Source of the DNA: a virus
Virus genome (UHGV): UHGV-1370141
Strand: one strand, 5' to 3'
DNA length: 64,000 bases
Of the stretch, positions 1 through 6,684 are shown one piece after another (the stretch's first letter is position 1; the number at the start of each line of letters is the position of its first letter). The notes under the pieces were generated by a model. It did no database searches and had not been told where the DNA came from. It saw only the letters and a list, made by a program, of their open reading frames with translations. Made by a program: the position numbers and the translations under genes.

Positions 1-2
1 AA

Positions 3-419
3 CGTATTGGTGATAAACGCTGGTATGAGGATATAATTGCGTTACATAATCACATCTACCATTACGGTTTTCGCGAGATGTCGCTAGTTTTGGACAAAAA
101 CATGCCAAAACCGTTATCTCCCGATCACGTTATGAACTTTATTTACGGGTATTTTAGAATTCAGGAAAATATAGAAAGACTGAACTCGTCCAATCGAAGC
201 GAGTGCGCGTTTACGCTAAACGCGTTATTTGATGAACCCTGTAATACATGTAGTCGTTGTTTTCGTATCGAGTCTGACGGTGCCCAGAACCAAGTAAAAA
301 ATGTTGAAATCGTAACGCAGCATGGCTGTAGTGACTTGGCCAGAAAGGTTGGCTTAGAAGCTTACGATTATATACGACGAGTGGTAGGGGCTAAGAATAG
401 GATTCCAGCAAAATTGTGA
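3..419 (+). CDS. radical SAM enzyme paralog, C-terminal part (5' end lies before window start)
   Basis: Open frame from window start; translation RIGDKRWYEDIIALHNHIYHYGF...MPKPLSPDHVMNFIYGYFRIQENIERLN parallels C-terminus of the 2011..2949 radical SAM protein; Cys cluster CNTCSRC...C near end. Confidence 0.6.
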   Translation, partial: RIGDKRWYEDIIALHNHIYHYGFREMSLVLDKNMPKPLSPDHVMNFIYGYFRIQENIERLNSSNRSECAFTLNALFDEPCNTCSRCFRIESDGAQNQVKNVEIVTQHGCSDLARKVGLEAYDYIRRVVGAKNRIPAKL

Positions 420-480
420 TATTTTTACAGAGAATGAATTATAATGTGCCTTAGCTGGCACTGAACCAGTAGGTGTTAAA

Positions 481-879
481 ATGGCGATTGGTTTATCTTC
501 TTTAAAAGCGCGTTTGGATAATATAGATTCTTCCGCGCTAAAAAACACTGGAGCAGTACAGAACTATATTCGTGGAAAGGCTACGAATAATGTCGATCTA
601 TTTGGCGGCCAACCTAAAAACCATTACGACTGTGGCGGTAGCTGTAGCTGGACGTGCTCTAGTTGTTCTGGTGGTTGTACCGGTAATGCTTCAGGAGGTT
701 GTGGTTCCTCATGTTCAGCAAACTGTGTTTCTGGTTGTAGTTCTGGATGTTCAGGTTGCTCTAGTTCATGTTCTGGAGGCTGCACGGGGACATGTATAGG
801 CCAATGTACGACTACATGTACAGGTACATGTAGTCGTACCTGTCATGGTGGCTGTTCACAATCGTGTACGGGAAGATAA
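481..879 (+). CDS. Cys/Ser/Gly-rich small protein, putative RiPP precursor peptide A (132 aa)
   Basis: About 50-aa leader-like N-terminus then core with ~25 Cys in repeated C-S-x-x-C units; shares leader and HY(D/N)C(G/N)GGCSW(T/S)CS motif with the next ORF; sits beside radical SAM/SPASM genes. Confidence 0.55.
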   Translation: MAIGLSSLKARLDNIDSSALKNTGAVQNYIRGKATNNVDLFGGQPKNHYDCGGSCSWTCSSCSGGCTGNASGGCGSSCSANCVSGCSSGCSGCSSSCSGGCTGTCIGQCTTTCTGTCSRTCHGGCSQSCTGR

Positions 880-882
880 GAA

Positions 883-1092
883 ATGATAAGTCTTAAAAAC
901 ATACGCGACAGATTAGTAACGGCAGAAGGGTACATTACCACAGCAGGAGCAAACAACTATATTGCAAACCAAGGTACAGTGTCATCTACTAATAACCTTT
1001 CTGGTTTACCGTTGAGTCACTATAACTGTAACGGTGGGTGTAGCTGGTCCTGTAGCGGTAGTTGTAGCCGTGGTGCTGGCGGTAGTAAGTAG
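883..1092 (+). CDS. Cys-rich small protein, putative RiPP precursor peptide B (69 aa)
   Basis: Paralog of 481..879 (LSHYNCNGGCSWSCSGSCSRG); starts 4 nt after the previous stop. Confidence 0.5.
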   Translation: MISLKNIRDRLVTAEGYITTAGANNYIANQGTVSSTNNLSGLPLSHYNCNGGCSWSCSGSCSRGAGGSK

Positions 1093-1115
1093 TAGAAACG
1101 TGTCAGAGGTATTCA

Positions 1116-2003
1116 ATGAAAAACGATTTACATTTAGCATATAACACTACATTTAACCATCCTTTGCAAATCTCTTCTCCAGATTCTGTACGTTATCATT
1201 TAAGTGATGACGTTCGTTTAATTACCATGCTACCTGGCGAATGGCCGAAATTACGGGGCCGTGATATCGTCAACCGTGATAATATCTCCGTAGAAAATAC
1301 TTTTACAATTCGTGATCTGCCGGTCGAACGTGTGATTGTTTTTACAGGAGATGATGAACTTTATGGAATGATTGTTGATGGTAAATACTTCTTCAGTGAC
1401 GGGGTTTTAAATGCTGGTAGCGATTTAGAACTTTTTTTTACACCGTTTGCTGAGCTTGACGCTAAGCCTATGGTTCGCAGATGGTGGAGTCCAGATTACA
1501 TGGGGGCTTTTCCGTATTACTATACTCTTGTTGGTAAGGATGTTGAAGAGTATTCCGATAGTGAACCATACACCAACATTGAAGGTTATCAGGACCTCGG
1601 AATTGCACATTTAGCTGATTTAATGGCTTATAGCTATAAGTTCGAATGGATTCGTGAACGTTCTGTTTGGAAAGCCATTACTGACGACCATGTTATTACG
1701 AAACGTATTCGTAAACCATGGATGCAACATCTTGTTCAAATACGATTTGGCCAAAGTCCAGTAACCGAGGCTGATATTTCTAAACTTGTTAGTTTTTTAT
1801 TGTCTAAGGTTGAATTGACTGATGAAGAAGCCGAAGCTGTTAAGCCGATGCTTGATCGTATTGTGACCTTAGAAGACCTCAAAAGAATGAATAGTCGTTA
1901 TAACGATCTTAATCGGTTGCTAGAGGCGTATAATTCGACAAAGGTTTTAAAACCTGGAGTCAATTTCGACGAAGATCCGTTGTTCGCTATCGACTATAAT
2001 TAA
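1116..2003 (+). CDS. hypothetical protein (295 aa) within the radical SAM cluster
   Basis: Long ORF between precursor-like genes and radical SAM genes, same strand, tight spacing. Confidence 0.55.
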   Translation: MKNDLHLAYNTTFNHPLQISSPDSVRYHLSDDVRLITMLPGEWPKLRGRDIVNRDNISVENTFTIRDLPVERVIVFTGDDELYGMIVDGKYFFSDGVLNAGSDLELFFTPFAELDAKPMVRRWWSPDYMGAFPYYYTLVGKDVEEYSDSEPYTNIEGYQDLGIAHLADLMAYSYKFEWIRERSVWKAITDDHVITKRIRKPWMQHLVQIRFGQSPVTEADISKLVSFLLSKVELTDEEAEAVKPMLDRIVTLEDLKRMNSRYNDLNRLLEAYNSTKVLKPGVNFDEDPLFAIDYN

Positions 2004-2010
2004 ATAATTA

Positions 2011-2949
2011 ATGGAGTCACCTGCAATGGCGACCAATGCGGAACCAAAATTATCAGATCAGTTATTTGACAATCCAACAATATTAGCCGTTATTACTACA
2101 TCCAAATGTAATCTGGACTGTAGTTTCTGCGGCGGAGCCTATTACATGAATCGTGAAGATTCTTCTCGAGAGTTTCAACGTGACCGAATTATGGAGGCGT
2201 TAGAAGCTAACCCAACAATCACCGAGATTCAATGGACGGGTGGTGAGCCTTTGTTAGCCACTCGTAAAATTGAGGCGTTTGTTGACGAGTTAAAAGTAAT
2301 TCGTCCAGAGCTCAAACATCAGTTATATACCAACGGTTTAAAGATGCGTAAAACGCATCTCCCGTTGTTAAAACAATTTGATAATGTGTATGTTAGCATC
2401 GACGGGTTTGAGTTGTCTGAACGCCCTTTTAAGCGTTTTATTAACGATGGTTGCTACGAAGCTTTAGAAGTAATGCATGAGCTTGAAAATGTTCATACAT
2501 GGGCCGTTTTAACTCGAGAACAGTTGGGTAACAAACGGTGGCATGAAGACATTATTGAGCTTCATAATGCGATCTATCACTACGGTTATCGTACCATGAC
2601 GTTGCTGTTAGACGCGAATATGCCAAAACCGTTATCTCCCGATCACGTTATGAACTTTATTTACGGGTATTTTAGAATTCAGGAAAATATAGAAAGACTG
2701 AATGTTTCCAACTCGAAAAGGTGTGACTATGTCGTAAGCAAAGTTTTTGATGGTGGGTGTAACGTATGCAGCAATAGTTTATGGTTAAGAGCAGATGGAA
2801 CCGAATATCAGTTGCAAAATGCCCCGAGATTATTAGAATCGGGATGTAACCAATTAGCTTGTTCCATCGGGTTAGAAGCCTACGAGTATATTCGACGAGT
2901 GGTTATGGCCAACCGTAATAGTGGAGTATTAAATGAACCAAGAAAATAA
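2011..2949 (+). CDS. radical SAM enzyme (312 aa) with C-terminal auxiliary Cys cluster
   Basis: CxxxCxxC motif (TTSKCNLDCSFCGG) near N-terminus; C-terminal cysteines CDYVVSKVFDGGCNVCS...GCNQLAC. Confidence 0.8.
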   Translation: MESPAMATNAEPKLSDQLFDNPTILAVITTSKCNLDCSFCGGAYYMNREDSSREFQRDRIMEALEANPTITEIQWTGGEPLLATRKIEAFVDELKVIRPELKHQLYTNGLKMRKTHLPLLKQFDNVYVSIDGFELSERPFKRFINDGCYEALEVMHELENVHTWAVLTREQLGNKRWHEDIIELHNAIYHYGYRTMTLLLDANMPKPLSPDHVMNFIYGYFRIQENIERLNVSNSKRCDYVVSKVFDGGCNVCSNSLWLRADGTEYQLQNAPRLLESGCNQLACSIGLEAYEYIRRVVMANRNSGVLNEPRK

Positions 2950-4255
2950 TTACCCGAAACAGTTGACTTACCAGATTGTTACAAACTTGTCGTGTAATTT
3001 GGACTGTGAGTATTGTTACGAGCGTAAATATCCCCGCAATAACAAAGCAGCAGATATTGTAGATTTTCTTCATGCCTGTTTCGAGCGTGATAAAGATTTA
3101 CCAAACGTAGAAGTCGTCATTGACATTATCGGCGGCGAGCCGTTTATGCAGCCTAAGCTTCTAATGGCCGCTTTCGAAACAGCCGAGCAGTTGTGTGAAG
3201 AACATAAACGCCCGTTTATGTTTAGTATCTCTACTAATGGGACATTATTAGATAGGCCGTTGAACAGGGAAATTATTGAACGTTGGAAGGACAGACTTTC
3301 TATCGGGGTGTCTATTGATGGGTTACCTGAGTCGCACGATAAGTACCGTATTTTTACAACGAGTCGCGAAGGTTCTTACGAGGCCGCTGTACGTGGTTAC
3401 AATTATCTAAAAGAAGTAGGTATCGCGGAGCTTGGGGTTAAAGCGACATTTACTTTGGAAACGCTCCCACATTATGCGGCGGGTATGAAATCCCTAATCG
3501 ATTTGGCTGGAGGTGGAACCATTTCTGGTAACGTAACCTTCGAAGACATTATGCCACGGAGTATGGCTACGTCGATAGCGCTACAAATGATGGATGTAGT
3601 CGATTATTGGGTTGAAAAGGGTTTACACACCAACCCACGTAATACCCTATCACATATCATCCCGGAAGGGTTAGATTTCGACACTATCTGGGAACCGAAC
3701 TGGCGGGATCAGCTACTTTACAACGATACTGTACGTTTAAACCCGGAACGCTTGCGTCCGTTCTGCGGGACATTAACTCACATGACTTGTTTAGGGTTTG
3801 ACAGGAAGATTTTCGGTTGTAACCGTTTCATGTCGACTGTAACGTCACGTTCTGCGGTATTTGAGTTAGTCGGTCGTGAGTTTGTTAGCTTAGACGGTGG
3901 GAAACTGCTGGAAGAGATTCAGACGCAATACACCAACTATCCTGAGACGTGCTTAGGTTGTCCGATGAAACACGCTTGTGGTAGCTGTGCAGCAGCTTCC
4001 TACGAGAATGGGGAAGGGACGTTAGAAGACCGTAAAGCGTATCACGCTGAACGTCGTCAATGTGGTTGGACAACTGCAAAATTAATGGTCGCGGAATACT
4101 GGAAACAGAAGATGGGTACAACATCTGTGAAGGATTTCCACGATAATAGCATGTGTTACTGCCCTCGCTGTGTACGTGAACGTGCCCAAAAAGAAAAACA
4201 ATTGAGAGAAGCCAAAGATGAAGCCAATTCTGATCCACAATATTACGAAGCGTAA
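2933..4255 (+). CDS. radical SAM / SPASM-domain enzyme (440 aa), anSME-like maturase
   Basis: CNLDCEYC radical SAM motif; GGEP motif; C-terminal CLGCPMKHACGSC SPASM-type cluster; overlaps previous gene by 17 nt. Confidence 0.85.
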   Translation: MNQENNYPKQLTYQIVTNLSCNLDCEYCYERKYPRNNKAADIVDFLHACFERDKDLPNVEVVIDIIGGEPFMQPKLLMAAFETAEQLCEEHKRPFMFSISTNGTLLDRPLNREIIERWKDRLSIGVSIDGLPESHDKYRIFTTSREGSYEAAVRGYNYLKEVGIAELGVKATFTLETLPHYAAGMKSLIDLAGGGTISGNVTFEDIMPRSMATSIALQMMDVVDYWVEKGLHTNPRNTLSHIIPEGLDFDTIWEPNWRDQLLYNDTVRLNPERLRPFCGTLTHMTCLGFDRKIFGCNRFMSTVTSRSAVFELVGREFVSLDGGKLLEEIQTQYTNYPETCLGCPMKHACGSCAAASYENGEGTLEDRKAYHAERRQCGWTTAKLMVAEYWKQKMGTTSVKDFHDNSMCYCPRCVRERAQKEKQLREAKDEANSDPQYYEA

Positions 4256-4790
4256 ATTCCGTTTTCTGGAAAAGTTTTTAGAAACTACGAAACTGTTTGG
4301 CTGTTATGTGCAGATTAACGGCGAAGATTTCAATGACGATGTTAAGCGTTTATTAATTCGTCACGGAATCACCGTTGTTATCCCGATGTATTGTACAGAA
4401 CTTACCGAACTTTCTGTGGCCGAAATCGAGAAACAAAATCCAGGCTTTGAACAGCGCGTGCTGGAATTTCCTAAACATAAAATCGTTCTTTTACGCCGCG
4501 CTTTGCAAGAGCCGAGCGTTGAATCTGTTGCTGCTCTAGGTTTATCGTTTCCTGGTGTGACAATTTATGTCACACGAAACCCAGAGTCCACCATCGATGG
4601 TTTTTACGATGAAAGGGAAACTTTTCATAGTTTAGTTTATCCCGAGCTTACAGAAGACGAACGTCAAGGACTACATATTGACTGGGACTCAAATTTTGAT
4701 AGTAAGTTTCGTAAAATCGATTTTGATCTTCTGATCGAGCTGGGTTTAATTAAAGGAGAAGACGAATGCCTGCTCTTGACAAAAGCTTAA
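4218..4790 (+). CDS. hypothetical protein (190 aa)
   Basis: ORF overlapping upstream gene end, consistent with operon; start codon uncertain. Confidence 0.5.
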   Translation: MKPILIHNITKRKFRFLEKFLETTKLFGCYVQINGEDFNDDVKRLLIRHGITVVIPMYCTELTELSVAEIEKQNPGFEQRVLEFPKHKIVLLRRALQEPSVESVAALGLSFPGVTIYVTRNPESTIDGFYDERETFHSLVYPELTEDERQGLHIDWDSNFDSKFRKIDFDLLIELGLIKGEDECLLLTKA

Positions 4791-5440
4791 TAAACGAAGA
4801 TATTCGCGCCAGATTTTTTAGCCGACTTTCCCCAATTGATCGCCACGGAAACTTTTTGGGTCATATAGGTACTGAAGATCGCGGCAGAACGGGTTTTTGT
4901 ACAATGCTTCATTACAAACTACTCGATGGCATGTCCGATGAAGACGCGTTAGATCAAATGCGTAGTTACAATATGTCAGATATTGAAGCAAATTTCACCC
5001 TGAAAAAAGCAAAAGAGTTCATTTCAGATGTATTGGAGATAGATCTGGATGAAATTCGAAGTAACGTTCGTTCAACAGCACGATATATTTATTTAGATGT
5101 TCAAAAGATCATGAAGGCGTTGGAGTCGCGTTACGAAGCAGAACGTTACGAACCAATTCAGCTGAATGATCGTCATTTTCAGGCTGATGCAATCTCCCGA
5201 CAAATGTTAGGGCAATATATCCAATCTGAAACTGCGCCAGAATATTGGTTGGATACCGCCAATACGCGTTTAGAACCCTTTACATTAGAAGAATGTAAGG
5301 AACTATTGTCCGAGATCGTAAAACGTGATCAGAAACTGCATGGACAAATGACCGCGCAGAAAAAAGAGCTTCGCCTCTTAGCTGAACAGCGTGACTACGA
5401 CACTATCCGTGCACTTGCACTGGAAATGGGATTAGAATAA
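4766..5440 (+). CDS. hypothetical protein (224 aa)
   Basis: ORF overlapping previous gene, followed by strong terminator. Confidence 0.55.
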   Translation: MPALDKSLINEDIRARFFSRLSPIDRHGNFLGHIGTEDRGRTGFCTMLHYKLLDGMSDEDALDQMRSYNMSDIEANFTLKKAKEFISDVLEIDLDEIRSNVRSTARYIYLDVQKIMKALESRYEAERYEPIQLNDRHFQADAISRQMLGQYIQSETAPEYWLDTANTRLEPFTLEECKELLSEIVKRDQKLHGQMTAQKKELRLLAEQRDYDTIRALALEMGLE

Positions 5441-5444
5441 AAAA

Positions 5445-5487
5445 TACCTACCTCCGTAAAGGAGGTAGGTAAACTTATTATTTTTTT
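5445..5487. terminator. bidirectional rho-independent terminator between convergent gene blocks
   Basis: Perfect 11-bp inverted repeat tacctacctcc / ggaggtaggta with 5-nt loop, T-run downstream and A-run upstream. Confidence 0.75.
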
Positions 5488-5509
5488 GTTATAGTAGTTG
5501 ACTTAGCGG

Positions 5510-6040
5510 TTAAGCAGTAAAACCGTCCAATTCACCGTTGGTGGTGGCCAGGTCAATACGATTATCGACAACCTTCGGTGTAATTACGAAAGTTGCCATT
5601 ACACCCGGTTTATAACGGAGGTTCTGTTCAGTAACGGTGCACGTCACGGTACGCAGAGTGACGTTTTCATGTTCGTCTTTCTGGTCTTCGGTGCTGTACA
5701 CAACGTCACCTGGCGCGATAGCGTCGTCAGGTTTTACTTTGTTGATGTAATATTGTAACCAAGCGCGGAGTTCGTTTTCTTGAACCCAGCGAGACAGATC
5801 ATCAGTTAGTTCAATCCGTCCTACAACACCTGGCTCCAGACGATCGTAATGCAGTTCGATTGCACCTTTGAAATTCTCAGAACCTGGTAGTGCAGTCATG
5901 GTAACTTTGGTATTCTTACTTTCGCCTTCCAGCGCAGTAGGGAGACCAAAGGACACTTCTTTATCAGTAATCTGATGTGGTAGCTCAGTGTTAGCAGCAT
6001 TATAAAGCGCGACCAACATCATCTGGTTAGTAGCGGCCAT
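5510..6040 (-). CDS. hypothetical protein (176 aa), paralog of 6112..6684
   Basis: ORF; C-terminus ...GELDGFTA shared with neighbour. Confidence 0.6.
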   Translation of the reverse strand: MAATNQMMLVALYNAANTELPHQITDKEVSFGLPTALEGESKNTKVTMTALPGSENFKGAIELHYDRLEPGVVGRIELTDDLSRWVQENELRAWLQYYINKVKPDDAIAPGDVVYSTEDQKDEHENVTLRTVTCTVTEQNLRYKPGVMATFVITPKVVDNRIDLATTNGELDGFTA

Positions 6041-6111: not shown

Positions 6112-6684
6112 TTAGCCACCGACACCCGGCGCAGTGAAGCCATCAAGTTCACCTTCCAGACCGCCCAGTGCTACCTTCTCAGGAGCTGGGTTGGAATAAG
6201 TGAAAGTAGCAATAGTACCCGCCAGGAATTTAATGTGGCCATCGTTTACTTTGACAGTGTAAACTTTAGCACCGCTGTCGCCTTCGGATTTAACGATAGT
6301 GAGTTCGCTCTCTGCAAACGCGTCATCGACATAACCTTTAGTAACCATTTCTTTGTTCAGTTTGGTTACAATGGCAGAGTTTTCCAGATCGAGACTACCA
6401 GCTTGTTCGTAAGCTTTAGCACCGATCAGGTCTTGGGATGCCAGACGGATATAATGGAATTCTTTCTCGCCTTTGAAGTTCTGGCTTTCTGCCTTGGCGG
6501 TCAGTGTAATTTTGGTGTTACGACCAGCGTCTCCGCTGTGCGCTTCGACAGCACCAAAATCGACATCACCAACCGTCAGATTAGAAGCGGTTGCAGAGTT
6601 TTTAGCAATTACAGCTTCGATGAGCTGTTGTTTGAAGGCTTTAGCCATCTTTTTTACCTCGTAAGTGGTAGGGGTGGATTGCAT
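6112..6684 (-). CDS. hypothetical protein (190 aa), paralog of 5510..6040
   Basis: ORF; similar length and C-terminal GELDGFTA motif. Confidence 0.6.
   Translation of the reverse strand: MQSTPTTYEVKKMAKAFKQQLIEAVIAKNSATASNLTVGDVDFGAVEAHSGDAGRNTKITLTAKAESQNFKGEKEFHYIRLASQDLIGAKAYEQAGSLDLENSAIVTKLNKEMVTKGYVDDAFAESELTIVKSEGDSGAKVYTVKVNDGHIKFLAGTIATFTYSNPAPEKVALGGLEGELDGFTAPGVGG

Follow-up and report, generated by a model that had tools for sequence, protein, structure and literature searches.

Near the start of the 64,000-nucleotide window (the whole stretch of DNA analysed here, from the virus genome UHGV-1370141) lies a gene, called A in the following, whose product ends in a dense cysteine repeat. 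It is accompanied by a short paralogue, B, and by a third, long paralogue, A0, which is located just upstream of the window start and encodes 130 amino acids (aa) with 21 Cys in the near-identical contig L004. A and B sit 2 kb upstream of, and on the same strand as, the gene of a radical S-adenosylmethionine (rSAM) enzyme with a SPASM domain. A is tied to this enzyme, which is of the Cys-peptide-maturase group, to a second rSAM enzyme and to an accessory protein. Judging from its sequence relationships, the feature is a divergent two-enzyme variant, in an SPN3US-like jumbo phage, of the CXXX-repeat rSAM target system, a family that as far as we could find is defined only computationally. The genes and elements concerned are:

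481..879, plus strand: gene A, ATG start, 132 aa, consisting of an N-terminal segment of about 50 aa and an 82-aa Cys-repeat tail, 20 Cys
625..666, plus strand: junction motif of gene A, Y-D-C-G-G-S-C-S-W-T-C-S-S-C, residues 49-62, the element with the strongest conservation in the clade
631..867, plus strand: Cys-repeat core of gene A, residues 51-129, (C-[S/T]-G-[S/G/T])n
883..1092, plus strand: gene B, ATG start, 69 aa, 4 Cys (residues 49, 53, 57 and 61), N-terminal segment and junction motif kept; phrog_6085, E 1.5e-24
1116..2003, plus strand: accessory protein, 295 aa, homologue of SPN3US gp165, phrog_8030, specific to the module
2011..2949, plus strand: small rSAM enzyme, 312 aa, with the cluster motif CNLDCSFC and C-terminal Cys residues; PF04055, 7e-14
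2933..4255, plus strand: rSAM/SPASM enzyme, 440 aa; PF04055

The first-pass annotation had described a Cys-dense (C-S/T-G/S-x-C)n core of about 80 aa in the product of A, and this description was confirmed. Among the 19 intervals between its 20 Cys, 16 measure exactly four residues, two measure three and one measures eight. The 82-aa core is made up of C20 S20 G19 T11 and 12 other residues; D, E, K and P are absent, and there is one His and not a single HxS repeat. In 100,000 shuffles of the core, intervals of four residues occurred 2.06 times on average and at most 10 times, as compared to the 16 observed. The Cys fraction is 24% in the core and 1.2% over the long open reading frames (ORFs) of the window. 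The consensus of the repeat unit, computed across the orthologues of A and A0, is C-[S/T]-G-[S/G/T], with Gly at position +2 as the best conserved position besides Cys. It is a matter of speculation that the conservation of this Gly fits tight packing or a Gly Cα acceptor. Y49, C51, C55, W57, C59 and C62 of A are invariant in the clade alignment (A3), as is the junction in its general form, Y-x-C-x3-C-S-W-x-C, across the clade. Gene A matches phrog_6085 (E 8e-39), and its sole curated-family matches are TIGR04114 and TIGR04117, both weak at about 17 bits (TIGR04114 17.6 bits, cut-off 20). A Pfam scan of A and its relatives matched no family, because the model PF27846 was not in the scanned set; precomputed Pfam tags for the relatives P0171 and P0175-P0177 do carry PF27846, tSAM_targ_Cxxx_rpt.

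At the level of DNA the repeat is hardly visible. Self-comparison and tandem-repeat search over A, the dot plot check that had been proposed for the expansion of a repeat unit, gave just weak period-12 matches of 2.4-3.3 copies, with no tandem array and no recent duplication. The repeat of A is therefore a degenerate periodicity at the protein level. Pairs of codons reading TGTAC(A) give rise to palindromes in the DNA of A. Cys-Thr codon pairs (TGT-ACx) with GTAC inside are likewise the source of a perfect inverted repeat of 16 nt (806-821 and 824-839, within 804..843), which could form a hairpin in the mRNA but is probably a by-product.

Two other frames are open across the same DNA:

572..799, plus strand: alternative ORF in the +1 frame, 75 aa, Val-rich; no gene but a compositional by-product
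624..785, minus strand: alternative ORF, 53 aa, open

The openness of such frames, and the fact that public records annotate other frames or the other strand, could be taken to mean that the Cys frame is untranslated and that, for example, 572..799 is the gene. Such an artefact is next to inconceivable in view of how the DNA has evolved. Ten orthologues of A were taken from GenBank and IMG/VR loci in which the neighbouring 295-aa protein is 58-100% identical to that of the window. In their codon alignment 20 out of 20 Cys columns are invariant, and in every one of these columns both TGT and TGC occur. When the window is compared with L004, its closest relative, 12 of 13 differences in A fall on third positions of the Cys frame. 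The ratio of nonsynonymous to synonymous substitution rates (dN/dS) of the core is 0.09-0.15, with dS from 1.6 up to saturation. The protein sequence is conserved also before the repeat: in a tblastn search with the N-terminal 50 residues of A, identity was 58-74% in the 40 listed of 73 matching records, all 73 being SPN3US-like jumbo phages of Salmonella, Erwinia, Escherichia, Cronobacter and Proteus. The +1 frame over A contains 0-1 stops in each orthologue, because the codon set of A rarely makes stops. Its openness is thus compositional, as the first-pass annotation had supposed, and 572..799 is not the conserved frame. Gene A is a real coding gene under purifying selection.

In public records the three paralogues are misannotated or missing. 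The SPN3US record (NC_027402; L002 6074..6409) has SPN3US_0166 / ACQ60_gp100, which is the Val-rich +1 frame over A. In pEa_SNUABM_29 (L001 4196..4408 and 4643..4915) two minus-strand 'PEQPEQ' coding sequences are annotated over A0 and A, and in SPAsTU (L003 5600..6621) none of A0, A and B is annotated. Since public annotations are mostly without the correct ORFs, past proteomic and genetic studies were blind to A0, A and B.

It had also been suggested that a repeat unit expanded in one copy while B kept just the first three or four units. The part on B is right: it has 4 Cys and 68-69 aa at all loci read (SPN3US, SPAsTU, pEa_SNUABM_29 and L004). The part on expansion did not survive the comparison with homologous phages. 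All 10 orthologues of A have exactly 20 Cys in 130-134 aa; A0, found in all SPN3US-like loci, has 127-131 aa and 21 Cys in 9 of 9 orthologues. The same trio occurs in a distant phage (L174) as two proteins of 122 and 119 aa and a short form of 69 aa that has 2 Cys and keeps only "YYDCGGSCSW". Because A, A0 and B are each of fixed length and Cys number, and the trio of the distant phage is alike, there is neither copy-number variation nor a recent DNA repeat. A low-complexity repeat that expanded recently in one paralogue and varies in copy number would agree with the periodicity of the protein and with B being shorter than A; it is nevertheless very improbable, given that no tandem array was found in the DNA, that length and Cys count are constant over ten orthologues with saturated synonymous sites, and that a second long paralogue and the same trio in the distant phage exist. 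From these alignments the long form is ancient and fixed in length, and B is a conserved short paralogue and not the unexpanded state. Conservation of the trio in the distant phage suggests a hetero-oligomer. In that phage (L174 6621..10567, on the 36.9-kb Logan contig SRR26596527) the trio is succeeded by an accessory protein of 300 aa and a pair of rSAM genes; the phage also encodes GroEL and an Acb2/Tad1-hairpin protein.

Regarding the enzymes, the rSAM motif CX3CX2C of the SPASM enzyme (C21, C25 and C28) and C278, C296, C340, C343, C349, C352 and C377 are invariant in 17 sequences. The last Cys spacing of its SPASM domain is CX2C, as compared to the canonical CX3C. The best NCBIfam match is TIGR04115, 'radical SAM peptide maturase, CXXX-repeat target family' (E 1.8e-34, 119.8 bits), and further matches include the Cys-peptide maturases QhpD, CcpM, SCIFF and CefB. 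The score against the SCIFF maturase model TIGR03974 is 55.2 bits (cut-off 425), and there is an HxsB-like match of 1.2e-21 with 77 bits (cut-off 370). The only solved structure matched by sequence is that of the SCIFF maturase CteB (PDB 5wgg). Phage relatives of the enzyme differ in their closeness to TIGR04115: three (L110, L157 and L101) pass the cut-off at 434-455 bits, others reach 290-300 bits, and the clade of the window (L010, L011, L099 and L100) scores 144-188 bits, about equal to its score against PapB. This even scoring places the enzyme of the window in a sister clade of TIGR04115. Its nearest relations by sequence are maturases of the CXXX-repeat, PapB and SCIFF types, and it is probably the maturase of the Cys-repeat proteins. 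The small rSAM enzyme matches several rSAM families weakly, HxsC-like among them (1.3e-10, 40.6 bits, cut-off 267.9). The TIGR04114 and TIGR04115 families reportedly originate from Haft & Basu 2011. In a literature search of an incomplete library, the chemistry of CXXX-repeat targets was nowhere described, and neither were tail fibres modified by rSAM enzymes or rSAM genes of SPN3US-like phages; a cyanophage paper that came up had no bearing on the system.

In a large protein database SPN3US-like orthologues extend to about 45% identity and the next tier lies at 31-40%; two proteins of this tier led to the Campylobacter and Deferribacter loci described below. A scan of IMG/VR with the enzyme alignment gave 80 loci, and 77 of them have a C/S/G/T-rich (C-x2-4)n ORF within 7 kb. 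These ORFs lie usually just upstream of the enzyme gene and encode 65-490 aa with the repeat at the C-terminus. The four-part module of Cys-tail protein, accessory protein, small rSAM and SPASM rSAM recurs in a Campylobacter prophage, in Deferribacter and at further loci (L098-L100 and L174). In the P2-like prophage of Campylobacter pinnipediorum, baseplate J and tail protein I are followed by a Phage_tail_fib protein of 384 aa and one further protein of 250 aa, after which come the large rSAM, the small rSAM and the sheath; the C-terminal end of the fibre protein contains GCNGCSGSCSGSCSSGCTACSGCSGSCSGK. Deferribacter abyssi has a GpJ-like protein, then a 302-aa fibre-like protein that ends in YYRCSDCSWTCSSSC and about 95 aa of Cys repeat, then a 250-aa protein, small rSAM and large rSAM. 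The 250-aa protein of Deferribacter is homologous to the 295-aa accessory protein of the window (E 4e-10), and the accessory proteins of ten loci form one family on clustering. In L175 a Cys-rich protein comes directly behind the M-L-K-I-J genes of a tail of lambda type, and then a small rSAM; only these two are seen after GpJ, and the contig ends soon after. In one 284-kb genome (L099 6131..8191, IMGVR_UViG_3300028886_000034) the small and large rSAM are fused into a 686-aa ORF, which adjoins a 451-aa Cys-tailed tail-fibre protein and a protein of the accessory family.

Co-occurrence of this kind bears on the question whether the Cys residues are modified at all. It might be that free thiols coordinate Zn, Fe, Cu or Fe-S along the chain or a trimer axis, as the earlier suggestion of metal coordination would have it, and that the rSAM enzymes make some other or minor modification. 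A core with this density of Cys and without acidic or hydrophobic residues would suit metal binding, AlphaFold2 (AF2) shows no intrinsic fold of A, and metal-stabilised fibre tips are known (T4 gp37 and gp12). The strict spacing of four without CC or CxC is unlike metallothionein, however, no metallothionein family was matched in Pfam, and the presence of the Cys-repeat ORF beside rSAM/SPASM enzymes in 77 of 80 loci argues that the Cys residues are reaction sites. We consider metal coordination unlikely.

Matches to the enzyme in bacterial genomes, at 23-29% identity, adjoin Cys-repeat ORFs as well. It is important to note that the enzyme-alignment scan of bacterial genome contigs was swamped by generic rSAM/SPASM proteins, and only the top 14 or so loci are informative. 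In four of the bacterial loci (L017, L019, L023 and L026) Cys-repeat peptides of 60-94 aa stand beside relatives of the enzyme. Margulisiibacteriota / Termititenax metagenome-assembled genomes (L013-L016, e.g. L014 4387..6402) encode, beside related rSAM/SPASM enzymes, proteins about 670 aa long in which 112-122 Cys are spaced by four residues.

Several unrelated phage backbones carry the module within a block of tail-fibre genes. Specifically, in relatives the Cys tail forms the C-terminus of tail-fibre proteins of 300-480 aa and the junction motif is shared; L010 and L100, two relatives with the tail-fibre fusion, carry it, as do P0172-P0178. Two Cys-tailed proteins (482 aa in L098 and 451 aa in L099) match tail-fibre PHROGs at 1e-32 to 1e-40, and a third, in L011, has the Pfam domain Phage_tail_fib. 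The family of A and B, phrog_6085, is matched by the C-terminus of the L099 protein and by the fibre-like L010 protein. In gut-phage loci the baseplate wedge is followed by the fibre protein (phrog_2163 / phrog_7037), the Cys-rich protein, a protein of about 100 aa and the enzyme, in this order. Among 24 dereplicated upstream neighbours the named families are all tail-fibre, tail, baseplate or central-fibre-J. In SPN3US, gp168 and gp167 are followed by the Cys-repeat genes. The homologue of SPN3US gp167, directly upstream of A0, falls in phrog_2163, as does the gut-phage fibre gene, and gp168 of SPN3US, which precedes the Cys-repeat genes, is a virion 'baseplate/fiber protein' (PMC5105663). 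Moreover, the Cys tail of the fused fibres comes after a fibre-repeat segment (A-x-K-L-x-T-x-R-x-I ... F-D-G-S ...), and with this segment the stretch of 50 residues ahead of the first Cys in A, A0 and B can be aligned. The N-terminal segment of about 50 aa thereby resembles one repeat of a tail-fibre shaft and not a disposable leader. Short alignments and gene order suggest that A0, A and B are detached fibre-end modules rather than leader-core peptides.

The same observations have to be set against the idea of a classical ribosomally synthesised peptide with post-translational modification (RiPP) of the phage, with A, A0 and B as leader-core precursors, a leader cut off after crosslinking and a Cys-rich peptide freed at lysis for an antimicrobial, signalling or anti-defence role. 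Short ORFs do adjoin rSAM/SPASM maturases here, the N-terminal 50 or so residues are conserved and the tails variable, and bacterial relatives of the enzyme stand beside the 60-94-aa Cys-repeat peptides mentioned above. Among the 7 block proteins, however, no leader peptidase, exporter, immunity gene or RiPP recognition element (RRE, PqqD-like) was matched with Pfam, NCBIfam, PHROG or PADLOC. In addition, the same Cys tail and junction motif end the tail-fibre proteins of 300-480 aa, and the module lies always inside tail-fibre/baseplate blocks on different phage backbones. A classical RiPP is in our opinion an improbable explanation. The label 'precursor', which had been given to A, is questionable in the classical sense of leader and core.

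We infer that A, A0 and B are substrates of the phage's own rSAM pair, that they become thioether-crosslinked and that they are associated with the tail fibre; for this combination of enzyme-substrate relation, chemistry and place in the virion we have a slight preference. The substrates would be A, B and A0, the enzymes the small rSAM (2011..2949) and the SPASM rSAM (2933..4255), and the helper the 295-aa accessory protein (1116..2003). The junction motif Y-x-C-x3-C-S-W-x-C would open the tail, in which Cys stands at every fourth residue. Disulfides would not form in the reducing cytoplasm; the SPASM enzyme would abstract hydrogen atoms from residues beside Cys and then join the Cys sulfur to carbon, giving thioethers of the sacti- or ranthi-type. 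In this way a floppy Cys/Ser/Gly tail may become laced by covalent bonds and withstand reduction and proteases, and this laced element may join or cap the baseplate/tail-fibre apparatus encoded directly upstream (homologues of SPN3US gp168 and gp167). A thioether bond makes sense for particles because these are built in a reducing cytoplasm without disulfides. The reaction itself is predicted because the nearest characterised relatives, PapB, SCIFF/CteB and QhpD, carry it out. Of the chemistries proposed in the first-pass annotation, thioether rungs are thus the best supported, by homology of the enzyme. To our knowledge no rSAM-installed crosslink has been described in any virion protein.

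Several observations weigh against the proposal of thioether-crosslinked, fibre-associated substrates. The SPASM enzyme stays below the TIGR04115 cut-off of 350 bits, and its second match, PapB (NF047865; 1.5e-32), scores 113.1 bits with a cut-off of 340. Since the enzyme is far below both cut-offs, the chemistry is not confidently transferable. A Cys-Asp link of the PapB type was rejected, as acidic residues are missing from the 82-aa core. The 295-aa accessory protein matched no known domain, and its model had no recognisable RRE or chaperone fold and no winged-helix match. AF2 gave no confident structure for A (predicted local distance difference test score, pLDDT, 42), and no obvious virion-attachment domain was seen in this protein of 130 aa. 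The alignment of the N-terminal segment with the fibre repeat is short and weak. Finally, no proteomic record or experiment was found that shows A, A0 or B to be modified or present in virions, the ORFs being absent or mis-framed in the annotations of SPN3US, SPAsTU and pEa_SNUABM_29.

A more general proposal can be made tentatively. It is possible, though in our estimate somewhat doubtful, that many phages, from P2- and lambda-like prophages to jumbo phages of 240 kb, lace a Cys tail with thioethers by means of a dedicated rSAM enzyme. The product would be a 'vulcanised' fibre tip or cap, and structural proteins of virions would have their first example of a radical crosslink put in by an enzyme. 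A0, A and B of the jumbo phages may then form a heterotrimer through the N-terminal segment and Y-x-C-x3-C-S-W-x-C.

The remaining features of the block are located on both sides of the genes described above:

78..419, plus strand: small rSAM paralogue, C-terminal 113 aa, truncated at the window start; complete gene of 303 aa in L004 (4392..5303)
4218..4790, plus strand: conserved neighbour, 190 aa, homologue of SPN3US gp162, phrog_7988, found only in SPN3US-like loci; module membership uncertain
4766..5440, plus strand: DUF4376 protein, 224 aa, homologue of SPN3US gp161, PF14301 9.7e-07, weak tail-fibre PHROG match E 0.008; module membership uncertain
5445..5471, T-run on the minus strand: hairpin with an 11-bp stem, between convergent genes ending at 5440 (plus) and 5510 (minus)

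The product of 78..419 is 63% identical to that of 2011..2949, including an identical stretch of 29 aa (NMPKPLSPDHVMNFIYGYFRIQENIERLN). This extra small rSAM between A0 and A occurs in this lineage only and is absent from SPN3US and L007. The DUF4376 gene is the last one of the plus-strand block, and the hairpin after it is likely a bidirectional terminator closing the operon of the module. Apart from this hairpin nothing exceeded shuffled sequences in a scan for promoters and terminators, and an Rfam scan of 1..6000 gave zero matches. Two adjacent paralogues on the minus strand (5510..6040 and 6112..6684, 176 and 190 aa, of the same cluster) are kept in SPN3US-like loci. PADLOC returned just generic viperin-like matches to the rSAM core, so the block is not a known defence system.

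As far as we found in the literature, a link of this system to virion structure is previously unreported. The distinct two-enzyme variant is present in all 73 matching records of SPN3US-like jumbo phages, including phages studied for therapy and biocontrol. If our interpretation is true, the CXXX-repeat rSAM targets, so far named computationally, gain a biological setting, the phage tail fibre. In that case rSAM crosslinking of proteins would join the means by which viruses stabilise particles assembled in a reducing cytoplasm, and adsorption, host range or the robustness of particles might prove to have a further, new determinant. The loci would also offer a large natural set of substrates, with 4 to more than 100 Cys units, for a Cys-based reaction.

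In comparison with known systems, the closest likeness is to the CXXX-repeat system, in which an rSAM/SPASM enzyme likewise adjoins a protein with Cys at every fourth residue and S/T/G in between. A agrees with that system in the spacing of the target and in the adjacency of the genes, the enzyme score being below the 350 bits set for TIGR04115. True members of TIGR04115 are found on phage contigs (IMG/VR) beside Cys-repeat proteins in tail-fibre blocks. The clade of the window differs from these loci in having a second, small rSAM, an accessory protein of 250-300 aa in place of the protein of about 100 aa, and a junction motif of its own. By CX3CX2C and the seven-Cys signature the 440-aa enzyme is an rSAM of the SPASM-domain type.

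The PapB/freyrasin report describes a SPASM enzyme that installs several small thioether rings in a repeated substrate with a Cys spacing of 4 (PMC10739248). PapB links Cys to Asp in CX3D motifs, whereas the core of A is without Asp and Glu, and A is thus not a PapB-type ranthipeptide. In SCIFF cores Cys is spaced by four residues with S/T in between, and there is a Cys-Thr thioether. The SCIFF precursor has about 45 aa with 6 Cys and occurs in Clostridia, while A has 132 aa with 20 Cys and falls outside that family. The SCIFF maturase has an N-terminal RRE domain; the phage SPASM enzyme is without one, because its rSAM motif begins at residue 21.

HXS (HxsA-D) is a bacterial anti-phage defence with His-x-Ser repeats and a periplasmic effector (PMC13128918). 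It is like the phage module in combining a SPASM-type rSAM, a smaller rSAM and an accessory protein with a substrate that is a repeat protein and not a small peptide. It is unlike it in that the genes here are phage-encoded in a tail-fibre block, and neither the scores nor the repeats are those of HXS, so that the match concerns the architecture only. By analogy HXS may be regarded as a precedent for an architecture of four components. A classical RiPP cluster has a peptidase or exporter and an RRE; none of these was matched in the block, where a cryptic RRE is conceivable. Metallothioneins have CC, CxC and CxxC clusters and match a family hidden Markov model; A has spacings of 3, 4 and 8 only and no such match. 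With phage tail-fibre components the module shares both the homologous segment in fibre proteins and the place in a fibre/baseplate block. Virions locked by extra bonds are known from the metal sites of T4 gp37 and gp12 and from the isopeptide chainmail of the HK97 capsid. The predicted thioether lacing would resemble these in providing virion bonds that hold whatever the redox conditions in the cytoplasm; the bonds of T4 and HK97 are made by metal coordination or as autocatalytic isopeptides, and those proposed here would be installed by rSAM enzymes of the phage.

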